Shown one piece after another: positions 2,481 to 49,056 of a stretch of DNA of 49,056 nt (position 1 is the first letter of the stretch; each line of letters starts with the position of its first letter). The translations under genes were made by a program, and so were the position numbers. Source of the stretch: Minisyncoccota bacterium (lineage in GTDB: Bacteria > Patescibacteriota > Minisyncoccia > Phycocordibacterales > UBA9973). The stretch spans positions 1-49,056 of the forward strand of contig DAORIO010000001.1 of the NCBI GenBank assembly GCA_035438585.1, given 5' to 3'. Below the pieces are notes generated by a model. The model saw only the letters and a list, made by a program, of their open reading frames with translations. It searched no databases and was not told where the DNA came from.

Positions 2481-2972
2481 CTAAATTTTTTTAAATCCAC
2501 CAGCAACGGCGATGGCGATAGCGTCTATTTCGTCGTCTAGTATTTTTTTATCAGGCAAAATAAATATTTTAGAAACCATTTTATAAATTGCTTCTTTTGA
2601 AGCGTGTCCGTACCCTGTAATAGAGAGTTTTATTTCTGGTGGAGTCATTTCGACAATTTCTATATTATTTTTCCTAGCTAAATATTTTATAACTCCACGT
2701 ACTTCAGACACCGCCATCGCTGTTTTTTGGTTTTTTACGATAAAAAGATTTTCAATAGAAATTAATTCTGGTTTAAATTTTTCGATTATTTTTTCAAGAC
2801 CCGTTGCAATACTAAAAAGTCTGTCAGAAAATTCTTCTTTTTTGTCACTTCGAAGACAATCTGAAAAAAGTAGCCTTGGTTTGTTTGCGTTTTCGATTAC
2901 AGCTACGCCGAGTCTTTCATAACCAGGATCAATCCCTAGAATAATTTTAGGAGAATGTTTAGATATTTTCAT
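2481..2972 (-). CDS. ruvC: Crossover junction endodeoxyribonuclease RuvC
   Basis: N-terminus ILGIDPGYERLGVAVIE and C-terminal DDEIDAIAIAV are typical of RuvC. Overlaps ruvB by 14 nt. Confidence 0.85.
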   Translation of the reverse strand: MKISKHSPKIILGIDPGYERLGVAVIENANKPRLLFSDCLRSDKKEEFSDRLFSIATGLEKIIEKFKPELISIENLFIVKNQKTAMAVSEVRGVIKYLARKNNIEIVEMTPPEIKLSITGYGHASKEAIYKMVSKIFILPDKKILDDEIDAIAIAVAGGFKKI

Positions 2973-3954
2973 CTTCTAGATATTTTTTTCCACTGGCGGT
3001 TATTGTTCTGCCTCGAGGGGTTCTTTCAATAAAACCAATTTGCATTAAGTACGGTTCCACAACGTCTTCAAGAGTTTCGTCTTCTTCTTGCAGAGAGGCT
3101 GAAAGAGTTTTTAATCCGACAGGGCCACCATTAAATTTATTTTGAAGAGTTTTTAAAAATTCTCTTTCAGTTTTTCCAAGCCCACGATTGTCTATTCCCA
3201 AGAGACGCATTGCGTCATCAATAGTACCTTTGTCCATCTTGGTTTTTTTTACTTGAGCAAAGTCGCGAACTCTTTTTAGTAGATGGTTTGCTATACGTGG
3301 AGTAAAACGACTTCTTTTGGCGATTTCTTCAATTTCTTCGTTTTTTATTTCCACCCCGAGAAGTTGGCTTGAGCGATTTAATATTTTTTTTATTTCTTGA
3401 TTTGTATAAAAATCTAGCCTAAAAACTCCACCTGAAAATCTTGATCGAAGAGGGGATGACAAAAGGGCGACTCTTGTTGTTGCTGCAATCAAAGTGAAGC
3501 TTGGTAGTTCGAGTTGAATTGTTCTAGCAGACGCGCCTTTTCCTATTACAATGTCAAGACTGCCGGCTTCCATGGCAGGGTAGAGAACTTCTTCTATTTG
3601 TTTATTTAAACGATGTATTTCATCTATAAAGAAAATATCTCCTTCAGATAGATTTGTAAGAATTGCGGCCAAGTCTCCAACTTTTAATAGTGCAGCCCCA
3701 GAAGTTATTTTTATATTTCTTCCTGTTTCTTTTGCAATAACATGAGCAAGAGTTGTTTTTCCAAGTCCAGGAGGTCCATAAAATAAAATATGCTCAGGTG
3801 TGTGGCCGCGCTCAGTCGCCGCTTGTATTAAAATTTTTACATTTTCTTTTATTAGGTCTTGCCCAACATACTCCTCCCAGTTGTGCGGGCGGAGAGTCTT
3901 GTCCAAAACCTCATCGTCATTTAGTTTTTTATAGTTTTCTTCAGCGCTTGACAT
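2959..3954 (-). CDS. ruvB: Holliday junction branch migration ATPase RuvB
   Basis: LRPHNWEEYVGQ, Walker A GPPGLGKTT, Walker B FIDEIHRL, and a C-terminal winged helix (PYLMQIGFIERTPRGR). Confidence 0.95.
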   Translation of the reverse strand: MSSAEENYKKLNDDEVLDKTLRPHNWEEYVGQDLIKENVKILIQAATERGHTPEHILFYGPPGLGKTTLAHVIAKETGRNIKITSGAALLKVGDLAAILTNLSEGDIFFIDEIHRLNKQIEEVLYPAMEAGSLDIVIGKGASARTIQLELPSFTLIAATTRVALLSSPLRSRFSGGVFRLDFYTNQEIKKILNRSSQLLGVEIKNEEIEEIAKRSRFTPRIANHLLKRVRDFAQVKKTKMDKGTIDDAMRLLGIDNRGLGKTEREFLKTLQNKFNGGPVGLKTLSASLQEEDETLEDVVEPYLMQIGFIERTPRGRTITASGKKYLEDENI

Positions 3955-6343: not shown

Positions 6344-6401
6344 ATGATTATTATAGCAATTTAACCTTTAAAAATAAGGGTAAAAAGGGGGAGAAAGGCT
6401 A

Positions 6402-6430
6402 TTGACAATAGGTTGTTTTTGTGATAAACT
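6402..6430 (+). promoter_or_regulatory. Sigma70-type promoter TTGACA-N17-TAAACT
   Basis: TTGACA 6402-6407, 17-nt spacer, TAAACT 6425-6430. Lies 28 nt before the ATG at 6458. Confidence 0.6.
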
Positions 6431-6457
6431 AATACCAAACTAAAAAAACTTCAGACT

Positions 6458-19213: not shown

Positions 19214-19308
19214 TTTGCGCAGGACTTGTAATTTCTTAATTTTGTATTAATATACAAGGGTTATTAATAATTATTAATTTCAAATTTTTAATTGTTGATT
19301 TTTTATAT

Positions 19309-19381
19309 CCGCCCATAGCTCAGCCGGTAGAGCAGCTCCCTTTTAAGGAGAAGGTCCTAGGTTCGATTCCTAGTGGGCGGA
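19309..19381 (+). tRNA. tRNA-Lys (anticodon UUU), no encoded CCA
   Basis: Manual cloverleaf: acceptor CCGCCCA/TGGGCGG, D arm GCTC/GAGC, anticodon loop CTTTTAA, T arm CTAGG-TTCGATT-CCTAG. Confidence 0.9.
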
Positions 19382-19531
19382 CAAATTTGGACGATAGGAC
19401 AATTTGTCCGCCCAAGCGAGACATCTGCTTGTCTCGCGCCTAGGAATCGAAAAGCTTTTCATTATTTTCGAAGAGCTTTGCTCTCCGAAAATTGAAAAGG
19501 TATACTGTTCGCGTAGCGAAAGATTCCTAGT
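19382..19531 (+). ncRNA. tRNA-trailing structured element, copy 1 (host tRNA-Lys)
   Basis: AATTTGTCCGCCCA (19401-19414) is the exact reverse complement of the tRNA 3' end plus trailer at 19374-19387. Hairpin GCGAGACA/TGTCTCGC has a CTGC-containing loop (19416-19437). CTAGGAATCGAA (19440-19451) is the exact reverse complement of the T-arm at 19362-19373. The conserved core hairpin spans 19452-19500. GGTATACTG follows, then P4 TTCGC-GTA-GCGAA (19508-19520). The sense copy GATTCCTAGT (19522-19531) is identical to 19365-19374. Confidence 0.75.
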
Positions 19532-19590
19532 ATTTCGGCTCGCGAGATTTTTTCGTCAGAAAAAATACTTGTGAGGATAAACTTATTTTT

Positions 19591-20058
19591 ATGAAAATCA
19601 CCATAATTTTAGACAACATCCGTAGCTCCGAAAATGTCGGGTCTATTTTTCGAACCTCTGACGCAGTTGGGGTAGATAAAATATATCTTATTGGAATAAC
19701 TCCAAATCCACTTGATCGTTTTGGTAGACCAAATCCAAAAATAGAAAAAGCATCTTTAGGCGCAGAGAAAACTATTCCATGGGAGCATTTTGAAAATATA
19801 ACGGAAGTTATAGAAAGCCTTAAGAAAGAAGGTTATAAAATTGTTTCACTCGAGCAAAATGAGAAATCGATTGATTATCGAGATTTGAAAATAAAAGAAA
19901 AAATTGCTCTTATTGTAGGTAATGAGGTTAGCGGTGTTTCAATAGATGCGCAAAATGAAAGTGATGAAATAATAGAAATACCAATGGCGGGGAATAAAGA
20001 ATCTCTCAACGTTTCAGTTGCTACGGGTGTTGCTTTATTTTCACTCCTTAAGAAATAG
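19591..20058 (+). CDS. SpoU/TrmH-family RNA 2'-O-methyltransferase (short form)
   Basis: ENVGSIFRTSDAVG, GNEVSGVS, IPMAGNKESLNVSVATGVALF. Confidence 0.8.
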   Translation: MKITIILDNIRSSENVGSIFRTSDAVGVDKIYLIGITPNPLDRFGRPNPKIEKASLGAEKTIPWEHFENITEVIESLKKEGYKIVSLEQNEKSIDYRDLKIKEKIALIVGNEVSGVSIDAQNESDEIIEIPMAGNKESLNVSVATGVALFSLLKK

Positions 20059-25347: not shown

Positions 25348-25522
25348 GTGATCCCGGTAGGGTAATCTTTCGTTACACGAACAGTATACCTTTTTGGCAA
25401 ACTCAGAACGAGTTCTTCGTTTACATCGAAAAGCTTTTCGATTCCTACACAGACGACGAGCAGTCGTCGTCCTCGGGATCACCAAATAAAAATGGCCACC
25501 AAATGGTGACTCATTTTTAAAC
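25348..25522 (-). ncRNA. tRNA-trailing structured element, copy 2 (host tRNA-Arg GCG)
   Basis: Read on the minus strand, the parts in order are as follows. TGGTGATCCCG is antisense to the acceptor 3' strand including CCA. Hairpin GACGACGA-CTGC-TCGTCGTC (25452-25471). GTAGGAATCGAA is the exact antisense of the T-arm (25437-25448). The core is AAGCTTTTCGATGTAAACGAAGAACTCGTTCTGAGTTTGCCAAAAAGG. GGTATACTG follows, then P4 TTCGT-GTA-ACGAA. The sense decoy is GATTACCCTACCGGGATCAC (25348-25368). Confidence 0.75.
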
Positions 25523-30186: not shown

Positions 30187-30355
30187 GCGGCGAGAGTTTC
30201 GAACCTTACAGGTTCAGTACACCTTTTCAATTTACTTAGAGCAAAGCTCCTCGTAAATAATGAAAAGCTTTTCGAATCTCGCACGTACGGCACGCAGGTG
30301 TCGTACTCGCCTCCGCATATAAAAAAGACCCGAAATATCGGGTCTTTTTTATATG
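30187..30355 (-). ncRNA. tRNA-trailing structured element, copy 3 (host tRNA-Ser)
   Basis: Read on the minus strand, the parts in order are as follows. A terminator hairpin is extended into a perfect 25-bp palindrome (30308-30332 / 30339-30363) that includes the acceptor 3' strand. Hairpin GTACGACAC-CTGC-GTGCCGTAC. GCGAGATTCGAA is the exact antisense of the T-arm (30271-30282). The core is AAGCTTTTCATTATTTACGAGGAGCTTTGCTCTAAGTAAATTGAAAAGG. GGTGTACTG follows, then P4 AACCT-GTA-AGGTT. The sense decoy is GTTCGAAACTCTCGCCGC. Confidence 0.75.
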
Positions 30356-34761: not shown

Positions 34762-34763
34762 CA

Positions 34764-34806
34764 AAACAAAAAACACTACTTAGATTATGAGTAGTGTTTT
34801 TTGTTT
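34764..34806 (+). terminator. 17-bp terminator hairpin after tRNA-Arg(UCU)
   Basis: AAACAAAAAACACTACT (34764-34780) / AGTAGTGTTTTTTGTTT (34790-34806). Confidence 0.7.
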
Positions 34807-34810
34807 ACTA

Positions 34811-34990
34811 TTTTGTCCCTGCCAGGAATCGAACCGAAGGCGCTAATTTTTAAGGAGCGAAGCGACTATAAAAATTAAGCGTTTCGACCGCAGGGAGAGG
34901 CGATTCCTGTACTGACCCTGTAAGGGTCGATATCCTGGCGGGGAAATTAAGCGTTTCGACCGTAGGGGGAAGCGATTCCTGGCCGGCAAT
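34811..34990 (+). ncRNA. tRNA-trailing structured element, variant copy (host tRNA-Arg UCU) with an internal 37-nt duplication
   Basis: TGTCCCTGCCAGGAATCGAACC (34814-34835) is a near reverse complement of the tRNA 3' end. A different long hairpin spans 34839-34881. The shared module is GTACTG + ACCCT-GTA-AGGGT + CGATATCCTGGCGGGG (34909-34943). A 37-nt direct repeat lies at 34873-34909 and 34945-34981 (3 mismatches). Each repeat unit ends in GCGATTCCTG. Confidence 0.65.
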
Positions 34991-35126: not shown

Positions 35127-35265
35127 CATGAGCCATGCGAATGGCCGGTAGTGAGTGAACTGCTTCACTCACGTAGGATTTGAAGAGCTTTTCATTATTT
35201 ACGAAGAGCTCTGCTCTGAGAAAATTGAAAAGGTGTACTGAAGCTGTAAGCTTCTAATCCCTTAC
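35127..35265 (+). ncRNA. tRNA-trailing structured element, copy 4 (host tRNA-Val)
   Basis: Hairpin GCCAT-GCGA-ATGGC. Degenerate anti-acceptor CCGGTA. Hairpin GTGAGTGAA-CTGC-TTCACTCAC (35151-35172). GTAGGATTTGAA (35173-35184) is antisense to the T-arm with a 2-nt deletion. The core is GAGCTTTTCATTATTTACGAAGAGCTCTGCTCTGAGAAAATTGAAAAGG. GGTGTACTG follows, then P4 AAGCT-GTA-AGCTT. The sense copy AATCCCTTAC (35256-35265) is identical to 35111-35120. Confidence 0.75.
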
Positions 35266-44167: not shown

Positions 44168-44171
44168 CAAA

Positions 44172-44200
44172 TAAAAAATCCTATTTTGTAGGATTTTTTA
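44172..44200 (+). terminator. Terminator after tRNA-Leu
   Basis: AATCCTA-TTTTG-TAGGATT, then T6. Confidence 0.75.
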
Positions 44201-44367
44201 TTTTAAGCGAAGATTTGAACGGGAAAGGGGTCGGGAAAACGGTAGTTTTCCTGTGGAGGAGGCAGTGACATTGAGCTTGTCGAAGTGGAGCGTTGGAACC
44301 GCCTGGTTCCAAAACACAGCGAGTTTACGAGCGAGTAGTGAAATTCTCCCCCTGCGCACAAATAAAA
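44201..44367 (+). ncRNA. tRNA-trailing element, divergent-core variant (host tRNA-Leu)
   Basis: AGATTTGAAC (44211-44220) is the reverse complement of the T-loop/stem. Three unrelated hairpins follow: GGAAAAC/GTTTTCC, GACA/TGTC and GGAACC/GGTTCC. The element ends in GTGAAATTCTCCCCCTGCGCACAAATAAAAAAT (44337-44369). That stretch is a 29/33 copy of the tRNA 3' end plus trailer. Confidence 0.6.
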
Positions 44368-44400
44368 AATACCCAAAATATTTTGGGTATTTTTTATTTT
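44364..44400 (+). terminator. Second terminator, following the decoy tRNA-Leu 3' end
   Basis: ATACCCAAAA-TA-TTTTGGGTAT, then T-run. Confidence 0.7.
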
Positions 44401-48957: not shown

Positions 48958-48961
48958 TAAA

Positions 48962-48988
48962 AAAAGACCGGACAAGCGGCTTTTTTAT
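48962..48988 (+). terminator. Weak terminator-like hairpin after tRNA-His
   Basis: AGACCG...CGGCT (5 bp with one bulge), then T6. Confidence 0.35.
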
Positions 48989-49056
48989 TTGGGTTACTAA
49001 GCGAGCAAAATCTGTATCTTTATGGGATAATTTTTAGGTTAAGACTAAAAAGACAT

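Follow-up and report, generated by a model that had tools for sequence, protein, structure and literature searches.

The window analysed here is the whole stretch of 49,056 nt, an entire contig of a metagenome-assembled Candidatus Paceibacterota genome (G+C content about 35%). Its tRNA genes are followed by copies of a short element in which an inverted and a direct copy of the tail of the host gene enclose a conserved, structured core. We give a probability of roughly 0.55 to the reading that this family consists of non-autonomous insertion elements with target-derived arms. The best explanation of the data is that the elements are small, non-coding and promoter-less, resemble miniature transposable elements with inverted repeats (MITEs) or short interspersed elements (SINEs), and settle in Paceibacteria-type Patescibacteria at the extreme 3' ends of genes, chiefly in the T-loop of tRNA genes. 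Our confidence in any particular enzymology of movement is much lower than in this reading.

The original prediction, made from the letters of the contig, had described seven modules in a fixed order behind the tRNA-Lys, tRNA-Val, tRNA-Ser and tRNA-Arg-GCG genes, and all of these modules were found where it had placed them. The 12-nt reverse complement of the T-stem and T-loop is present as described behind tRNA-Lys, tRNA-Ser and tRNA-Arg-GCG but is imperfect behind tRNA-Val, where 2 nt are deleted. The core motif, AAAAGGTRTACTG followed after any five nucleotides by GTA, occurs four times in the window against 0.05 times expected. Furthermore, a covariance model built from 120 copies from elsewhere scores these four copies at 78-90 bits (E-values of 1e-15 to 1e-17, to be read as rough, like all E-values of this model). 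A variant core predicted behind tRNA-Arg-UCU was recovered at 34858-34942 (27 bits, E=4e-4). The variant predicted behind tRNA-Leu shares the order R, anti-R, core and R' (defined below), but its core, here called type B, is unrelated to that of the other copies (type A). The type B core (GGAAAGGGGTCGGGAAAAC..., with two hairpins; 44204-44340) recurs behind tRNA-His in another genome (L130, 1887-2075). All seven tRNA genes of the window, on whose positions ARAGORN and Rfam agree, are occupied: by four near-identical cores, the Arg-UCU variant, the type B copy behind tRNA-Leu and a degenerate start behind tRNA-His. A marginal match of the model at 6382-6443 was discarded as a promoter-like AT-rich spacer.

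The comparison copies come from metagenome-assembled genomes read as 8-kb blocks (loci with L numbers) and were ascertained by a search pattern, so positions fixed in that pattern are invariant by ascertainment. The general layout was derived from a segmented table of 73 tRNA-linked copies. It starts with the host tail itself (R), from about T54 of the T-loop to 0-20 nt beyond the tRNA, followed by a tip, frequently a hairpin resembling a bidirectional terminator, and by the reverse complement of the trailer and acceptor strand. Next comes an optional hairpin (Pa), stable in 68 of the 73 copies and with CTGC as its commonest loop, which lies exactly at the junction between acceptor and T-stem. 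The antisense of the T-stem 3' strand and T-loop (12 nt, terminating in TCGA) precedes the core, and a direct repeat (R') starting at about C56 closes the element. Since R' repeats the tail of the host gene, this gene remains intact. The length of R' ranges from about 10 to 40 nt and is bimodal, the repeat either stopping at the end of the T-stem or continuing to the end of the tRNA and past it; the T-loop end is fixed and the other end variable. In L084, R' holds only the left arm of an apparent 'terminator', and the right arm is therefore part of the inverted copy.

The arms are specific to their host. Tabulation of the flanks showed the antisense 12-mer of the tRNA's own 3' half (reverse complement, at most one mismatch) within 260 nt downstream of 70 of the 144 tRNA genes in related loci, and upstream of none of the 144. 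The two arms of one copy pair at -10.3 kcal/mol, compared with -6.3 kcal/mol after swapping arms between copies, and can form a stem (P1) that encloses the core. On either side, the core meets its arm within the palindrome TCGA of the T-loop: on the left, antisense TCGA abuts the AAAGC of the core, and on the right the core is followed by CGA. The non-tRNA insertion sites (CATTGAAG, CATTAAAG) resemble this palindrome.

Several variations of the arms and of the tRNA ends were also observed. One subfamily (L023, L054, L062, L075, L107, L132 and L137) carries an extra small hairpin in the right arm (e.g. GCG-TACT-CGC, then GGT), placed between CGA and the T-stem copy of R'. Most tRNA genes of the examined loci do not encode CCA, the discriminator being followed by CA (CAA, CAT, CAG). 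In L083, L105 and L120, some copies without a detectable tRNA upstream are preceded by the shared motif AAA(A)GTTC(C/G)AAC(A/G)TCGT(C/A)CCA, which could be what is left of a tRNA tail or the terminus of a different element.

In the four near-identical copies, the core consists of a long hairpin (AAGCTTTTC...GAAAAGG; P2/P3), then GGTRTACTG, then a 5-bp hairpin with a GTA loop (P4). RNAalifold and direct pair counts back the basal stem (CUUUUS/SAAAAG), the upper P2 and the 5-bp P4. Paired cells amount to 96.2% versus 72.6% in shuffles and the covariation score to 0.558 versus 0.128; none of 500 shuffles attains the observed values, and slid registers collapse. The predicted covariation of the core is thus borne out for P2 and P4, which covary strongly across copies. 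The claim that its pairing favours the tRNA-sense strand also held: of 124 copies, 122 have a P2/P3 hairpin that is stabler on that strand (mean difference 3.2 kcal/mol), and P4 and Pa show no strand bias. Therefore, the structure under selection is one of the sense strand, either as RNA or as single-stranded DNA. Two conserved stretches of the core are self-complementary, GURUAC (e.g. 19500-19505) and AAAGCUUU (e.g. 19451-19458), the former through G-U pairs that exist on the sense RNA strand only. This may point to dimerisation or to a protein site with symmetry.

The wider scan that had been proposed as a check confirmed that the core is present behind other tRNAs. An exact-pattern scan of one genome per species gave at least 118 stretches with at least 137 motif matches, and the covariance model found 124 copies, divergent ones among them, at E<0.01 in 100 loci. 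Among the matches listed, and with labels as deposited, all but one chance match are assigned to Patescibacteria: Nomurabacteria, Paceibacterota/Paceibacteria, Kaiserbacteria, Taylorbacteria, Azambacteria and Minisyncoccia, with many assembled genomes labelled 'uncultured Candidatus Saccharibacteria'. Two contigs belong to a bin labelled Acidimicrobiales, which we suspect to be mis-binned. Of the 137 motif matches listed, 78 sit 80-300 nt downstream of a same-strand tRNA, and the nearest upstream gene is an opposite-strand tRNA for two. At least 29 anticodons are represented among the host tRNAs.

The element is not tRNA-specific. The core is carried at the 3' ends of the ribosomal protein L11 gene (rplK) in two genomes and of a 603-residue LepA-like gene; in both, R is the end of the coding sequence (12-15 nt, stop codon included) and is followed by the inverted copy, the core and R'. 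A TopA-like gene likewise ends with the core and a direct repeat of the gene tail. Another copy lies about 125 nt downstream of a 5S rRNA gene, past a terminator-like hairpin, and in the 5S rRNA-linked subfamily a perfect hairpin, not an antisense arm, adjoins the core. Across hosts, three features are constant: the core, a directly repeated host tail and an orientation shared with the host gene; the inverted copy (anti-R) precedes the core in most tRNA copies and some others, not in all. Near element loci we also observed two group I introns above the Rfam threshold (L140, 1736-1954, within the 23S rRNA gene; L035, 6211-6447).

A miniature tRNA-homing element was one of the two functions that the original prediction had offered. 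Its mobile part is supported by presence and absence among relatives, tandem and nested copies, direct repeats and near-identical cores at different genes within one genome; how the copies move is what we infer. In the examined loci, 60 of the 144 tRNA genes (about 40%) have nothing behind them, including the Val, Arg-UCU, Leu and His tRNAs of related genomes. L104 and L094 have no element behind this group, which is fully occupied in the window, and in L027 the group is empty or truncated; in L145, the next gene begins 21 nt after tRNA-Leu, without an element. Comparison of the orthologous tRNA-Lys/SpoU locus, another of the checks proposed, showed different states: an intact copy with a different Pa in a relative at 88% protein identity, a core mostly lost but a long R' with acceptor copy kept in a 77% relative (L144), and the whole segment inverted, with the core absent, in an 83% relative (L142/L143). 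In the latter (2739-3000, corresponding to 19214-19590 of the window), tRNA-Lys and element remnants are flipped between YibE/F and SpoU; the R/anti-R inverted repeats may promote such local inversions. The Arg-GCG copy of the 77% relative is also decayed, with substitutions at otherwise invariant positions. In two close relatives, the assembly contig starts within tRNA-Lys, upstream of the element and close to it (L141, 1-256; L144, 1-250), which suggests that the repeats of the element break short-read assemblies.

Moreover, identical tandem units are found in L079 and L048, and nested or serial copies in L040, L086, L088 and L110. In the variable interior of the core, identity exceeds 80% for 33% of same-genome, different-tRNA pairs, compared with 3.8% of different-genome, same-tRNA pairs and 1.4% of different-genome, different-tRNA pairs. 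For instance, the copies behind the topA-like gene and tRNA-Leu-CAA of L055 are 86% identical inside, and the arms of each match its own host. Therefore, cores spread or were homogenised within genomes and the arms were re-matched each time. Since the same interiors carry different host-exact arms that reach into non-conserved trailers, these arms are best seen as copied from the target and not as a pre-existing guide. The other part of the homing proposal, that target specificity is written in the flanks, was thus probably the wrong way round: the arms follow the host gene, including the protein gene of L055.

The arms would be synthesised from the target during or soon after insertion, probably by fold-back or template-switching synthesis seeded by the TTCGA microhomology of the T-loop at both core junctions. 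Such synthesis might fold back from a 3' end near the gene end and then switch into and out of a donor core; it would be expected to leave a repeat that, as observed, is fixed at its T-loop end and variable at the end lying in the palindrome centre. The intermediate may be an RNA of the sense strand, produced by read-through of the strongly expressed host gene, or else single-stranded DNA of that strand, and the template for synthesis could be DNA, or a read-through transcript that a reverse transcriptase copies. The work would be done by an enzyme acting in trans. Later correction between the inverted arms could maintain their match. The element would be mainly selfish, and any effect on termination or tRNA 3' processing would be secondary. 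The GC skew is uniform along the contig and elements are present on both DNA strands; together with the co-orientation with strongly expressed genes, this fits a transcription- or target-coupled process better than one coupled to the direction of replication. We propose only tentatively that the element is self-retargeting, writing the tail of its target inverted and direct at each insertion via RNA or single-stranded DNA and T-loop microhomology. If so, one payload can colonise any tRNA, 5S rRNA or gene end without destroying it. We see a substantial, though less than even, chance that the mechanism of movement is categorically new, a SINE-like or fold-back retroposition undescribed in bacteria.

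Several observations weigh against insertion elements with target-derived arms. No clean pair of empty and filled sites at strain level was found in close relatives: the Lys locus is filled or decayed in every relative at 77-96% identity, the RluA neighbourhood is rearranged, and the empty tRNAs belong to relatives too distant for base-exact boundaries. The similarity of cores within genomes could result from gene conversion and not from movement. No transposase, integrase or reverse transcriptase is linked to a copy; reverse transcriptase homologues occur in three element loci (L070, 1-744; L119, 174-893; L003, 1-192), none adjacent to a copy. These carry a YADD motif and are presumably of the diversity-generating retroelement (DGR) type. 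To our knowledge, no described mechanism yields direct-inverted-direct target copies around a payload. The position of Pa, exactly between anti-acceptor and anti-T arms, is unexplained by simple fold-back copying. Finally, covarying structure across a class-level clade and the occupancy of all seven tRNAs of the contig would also fit a host function.

Such a function was the other proposal of the original prediction, an anti-tRNA or decoy switch. In general form, the element would be a cis-acting RNA module of the host at gene 3' ends, the antisense pairing with either the real tail or the downstream repeat and thereby tuning termination, 3' processing or stability. The two mutually exclusive pairings do exist, and in the minimum-free-energy fold of a co-transcript of tRNA-Lys and element, the antisense is bound to the 3' half of the tRNA (-101.6 kcal/mol, versus about -77 kcal/mol for folded tRNA plus folded element); however, this pairing would unfold the tRNA. 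The R/anti-R hairpins resemble bidirectional terminators, but terminator-like hairpins often lie between tRNA and element, whose transcription may therefore be poor. Strong covariation, the sense-strand bias, strict co-orientation with the host gene and full occupancy in the contig would all suit a switch, whereas about 40% of tRNAs lack the element, copies decay with no visible consequence, an unrelated core (type B) occurs in the same layout and the core has non-tRNA hosts. As a general function, we therefore consider a switch unlikely.

Somewhat less probable is a passive product of replication errors, in which serial template switching of hairpin-prone DNA beside highly transcribed genes gives direct-inverted-direct triplications and the core, without dedicated machinery, is carried along via T-loop microhomology and gene conversion. 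Direct-inverted-direct rearrangements and quasipalindrome correction are known processes, and the order of the copies, the palindrome centres and the TCGA microhomology at both core junctions agree with them. However, the core is conserved across a class-level clade and shows compensatory changes, which implies that its structure is under selection, and neither the conservation of the Pa hairpin at one exact position nor the sense-strand bias is in favour of passive origin.

Still lower we place guide-programmed homing, in which the arms would guide a trans-acting RNA- or DNA-guided enzyme to a matching gene and specificity would indeed lie in the flanks. A conserved, scaffold-like core does lie between arms (12-25 nt) that match the target in complementary and in identical form, and the use of both strands bears a loose resemblance to the logic of bridge RNAs and TIGR guides. 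But left and right arms are the same segment, mutually paired, and not two target halves; the repeats reach non-conserved trailers, with lengths of 10 to 40 nt; near-identical interiors carry different arms in one genome, so that many coordinated guide changes would be needed before each jump; and no IS110, TnpB or IscB-type gene lies nearby in the regions tested. Least probable is a small stable RNA built on a tRNA-like minihelix, its anti-R:R' stem mimicking acceptor and T-stem allowing release and stabilisation of a core RNA, with a function of its own, by RNase P, RNase Z and the CCA-adding enzyme: a long R' does rebuild the full helix, with the discriminator and the encoded CCA where the gene has one, and Pa is placed where the tRNA body would emerge, but many copies retain the T-stem part only, protein-gene copies use arbitrary coding sequence as arms, and the antisense also spans T-loop and trailer, which is superfluous for a mimic.

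The family has partial likenesses to several known systems. Like MITEs and small bacterial repeats (Correia/NEMIS, REPIN, RPE, PATE), the element is 100-200 nt long, non-coding, multi-copy and hairpin-forming; it lies at intergenic or gene-end sites, varies in presence among relatives, and has inverted arms and flanking direct repeats. It is thus MITE-like in being small, non-coding, multi-copy and polymorphic for insertion. In contrast to MITEs, it has no conserved terminal inverted repeats, since its arms are the tail of the host gene and differ in every copy; its direct repeat is variable (10-40 nt), unlike the fixed duplication of 2-10 bp of MITEs; it keeps a set position and orientation with respect to the host gene; and no related autonomous insertion sequence was found, nor a transposase among the 30 open reading frames (ORFs) of the window.

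tRNA-targeting integrative elements, whose integrases are known to use a T-loop sublocation, and their integrase-less, att-flanked remnants of the cis-mobilisable element (CIME) type also repeat the 3' portion of the tRNA directly, beginning in the T-loop, keep the tRNA intact and accrete in tandem. The R/R' repeats of the element likewise derive from the tRNA 3' part and start in the T-loop. However, the element is only 100-200 nt long, has no integrase in reach, carries an inverted copy of its target, and its repeat extends into the local trailer; its hosts are dozens of different tRNAs, 5S rRNA and protein genes. No cognate tyrosine or serine integrase was found in the window, and serine recombinases lie near an element in L003 only, in a neighbouring island. 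With 29 different tRNAs and non-tRNA hosts, many integrases would be needed.

R2-type retroelements are promoter-less and co-transcribed with their host rRNA, carry a 5' ribozyme that pairs with upstream host rRNA and are flanked by variable target repeats, while SINEs have no ORF. The element shares with them the absence of a promoter and of an ORF, co-orientation with a highly expressed RNA gene, complementarity to upstream host sequence and variable repeats. Unlike them, it is bacterial, matches no Rfam ribozyme, and carries both inverted and direct target copies, and no partner reverse transcriptase or endonuclease was found. In attachment of the CTX-phage type (integrative mobile elements exploiting Xer, IMEX), two inverted target copies fold into a single-stranded hairpin that mimics the duplex target; the element differs in having no dif/Xer site logic and no phage genome, and in a stem whose sequence changes with each host gene. 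Duplication-triplication/inverted-duplication (DUP-TRP/INV-DUP) events and quasipalindrome template switching produce short direct-inverted-direct segments with junctions at hairpins and microhomology, whereas the pattern described here is recurrent, family-like and always accompanied by a conserved structured payload. We know of no counterpart to a direct-inverted-direct target copy around a conserved payload. In size, copy number and turnover the element behaves like a MITE or a SINE, but it has neither the terminal repeats shared among copies nor the duplication of set length that define MITEs, and there is no integrase cognate to it as in tRNA islands, no nuclease or recombinase next to it in the regions tested and no Rfam model that matches it.

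The original prediction had recognised no described family, and the searches agree. At the gathering threshold of Rfam 15, only tRNAs pass in the window, and a permissive scan of 19250-19600 gave only chance-level microRNA and snoRNA matches. Blastn searches of phage and plasmid collections gave no match, and full-text literature searching found no description of the family. In a scan of viral contigs, 18 of 19 matches were due to chance and one, L003, was true. This contig (228-10370) encodes type III restriction-modification genes, two large serine recombinases, a RelA/SpoT-like gene, ParB and a malic enzyme and adjoins two tRNA-Ser genes; it looks like an integrated island in a chromosomal fragment and not like a phage.

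Several other identities were considered and rejected. An opposite-strand, split or permuted tRNA, or an intron of a second tRNA, has no partner half, the upstream tRNA being complete, and the antisense is an exact complement, not a copy of a tRNA 5' strand. An origin from mature tRNA, as at a primer-binding site, is contradicted by R', which tracks the genomic trailer and not the matured CCA end (CCA gained in 2 of 29 cases) and is derived from genomic or primary-transcript sequence. The variable and template repeat logic of DGRs does not apply: R and R' do not differ specifically at adenines, and the host genes encode tRNA and rRNA. A T-box or attenuator was discarded since the element is 3' of the tRNA, pairs with the T-arm and acceptor 3' strand, has no specifier and matches no Rfam T-box. 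An IS110 bridge RNA or a TnpB-IscB omega RNA would require an ORF that is absent from the contig regions tested; in addition, both arms are the same target segment, mutually paired, and not two halves or one flank. No Rfam class of small self-cleaving ribozyme was matched.

The copies of the window and their parts are listed in Table 1. In the Lys copy, the AATTT immediately 5' of the anti-acceptor (inside 19383-19405) mirrors the tRNA trailer AAATT. In the Arg-UCU variant, a 38-nt segment of the core (34872-34909; AAATTAAGCGTTTCGACCG.AGGG.GA.GCGATTCCTG) is repeated at 34944-34981, as if a partial copy had been added. The remainder of the contig encodes housekeeping functions, including an aminoacyl-tRNA synthetase, RuvB, PolA, Fpg, RuvX, pilus genes and RluA. 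As predicted, no recombinase is nearby: the 30 ORFs scanned in the window include no integrase, transposase or reverse transcriptase.

Table 1. Element copies in the window and their parts
Feature	Position	Strand	Remarks
tRNA-Lys(UUU), host gene	19309-19382	+	ARAGORN, Rfam; 3' segment from T-loop on is the repeated unit R
Lys copy, whole element	19383-19531	+	All seven modules present
Lys trailer and tip	19383-19405	+	Centre of R/anti-R palindrome
Lys anti-acceptor	19406-19414	+	Exact reverse complement of acceptor 3' strand and discriminator (GTCCGCCCA)
Lys Pa hairpin	19415-19438	+	CTGC in loop; exactly at antisense acceptor/T-stem junction
Lys anti-T arm	19439-19451	+	Reverse complement of T-stem 3' strand and T-loop; P1 5' strand
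Lys core	19452-19520	+	84.8 bits
Lys core, P2/P3 hairpin	19452-19500	+	
Lys core, GGTATACTG	19499-19507	+	
Lys core, P4	19508-19520	+	GTA loop
Lys R', short form	19521-19531	+	Direct repeat of T-loop 3' part and T-stem 3' strand; P1 3' strand
Val copy	35128-35265	+	78.4 bits
Val anti-acceptor	35128-35149		Degenerate
Val Pa	35150-35172		
Val anti-T	35173-35184		
Val core	35185-35253		
Val R'	35254-35265		
Ser copy	30187-30354	-	90 bits
Ser trailer/hairpin	30317-30354		Palindromic
Ser anti-acceptor	30308-30316		
Ser Pa	30283-30307		
Ser anti-T	30271-30282		
Ser core	30202-30270		
Ser R'	30187-30201		
Arg-GCG copy	25348-25522	-	80.2 bits
Arg-GCG trailer/hairpin	25485-25522		
Arg-GCG anti-acceptor	25474-25484		Includes CCA
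Arg-GCG Pa	25449-25473		
Arg-GCG anti-T	25437-25448		
Arg-GCG core	25369-25436		
Arg-GCG R', long form	25348-25368		T-stem and acceptor 3' strand
Arg-UCU variant	34763-34982	+	27 bits; core keeps TGTACTG and GTA hairpin
Arg-UCU hairpin	34763-34806		Terminator-like
Arg-UCU anti-R	34814-34835		Unbroken, without Pa
Arg-UCU variant core	34836-34927		
Arg-UCU R'	34928-34943		
Arg-UCU partial second copy of core segment	34944-34982		After R'
Leu copy, type B core	44169-44400	+	
Leu hairpin	44169-44203		
Leu anti-T-loop	44211-44220		10 nt
Leu core B	44221-44340		
Leu R'	44341-44370		30 nt, reaching into trailer
Leu second hairpin	44371-44400		Terminator-like
Segment behind tRNA-His	48958-49056	+	Hairpin, degenerate anti-acceptor (TGGGTTACTA), start of Pa-like segment; ends at window edge

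The genomes of Patescibacteria are tiny and streamlined, yet an element follows every tRNA gene of this contig and the family occurs in many lineages. The reverse-complement and direct copies of tRNA tails could confuse gene callers. Furthermore, the element provides a well-covarying RNA-like structure for Rfam and a possible marker of Paceibacteria lineages. If the arms are templated by the target, a non-coding element would colonise essential genes safely and change targets without guide mutation, which would be of interest to mobile-DNA research and genome engineering.

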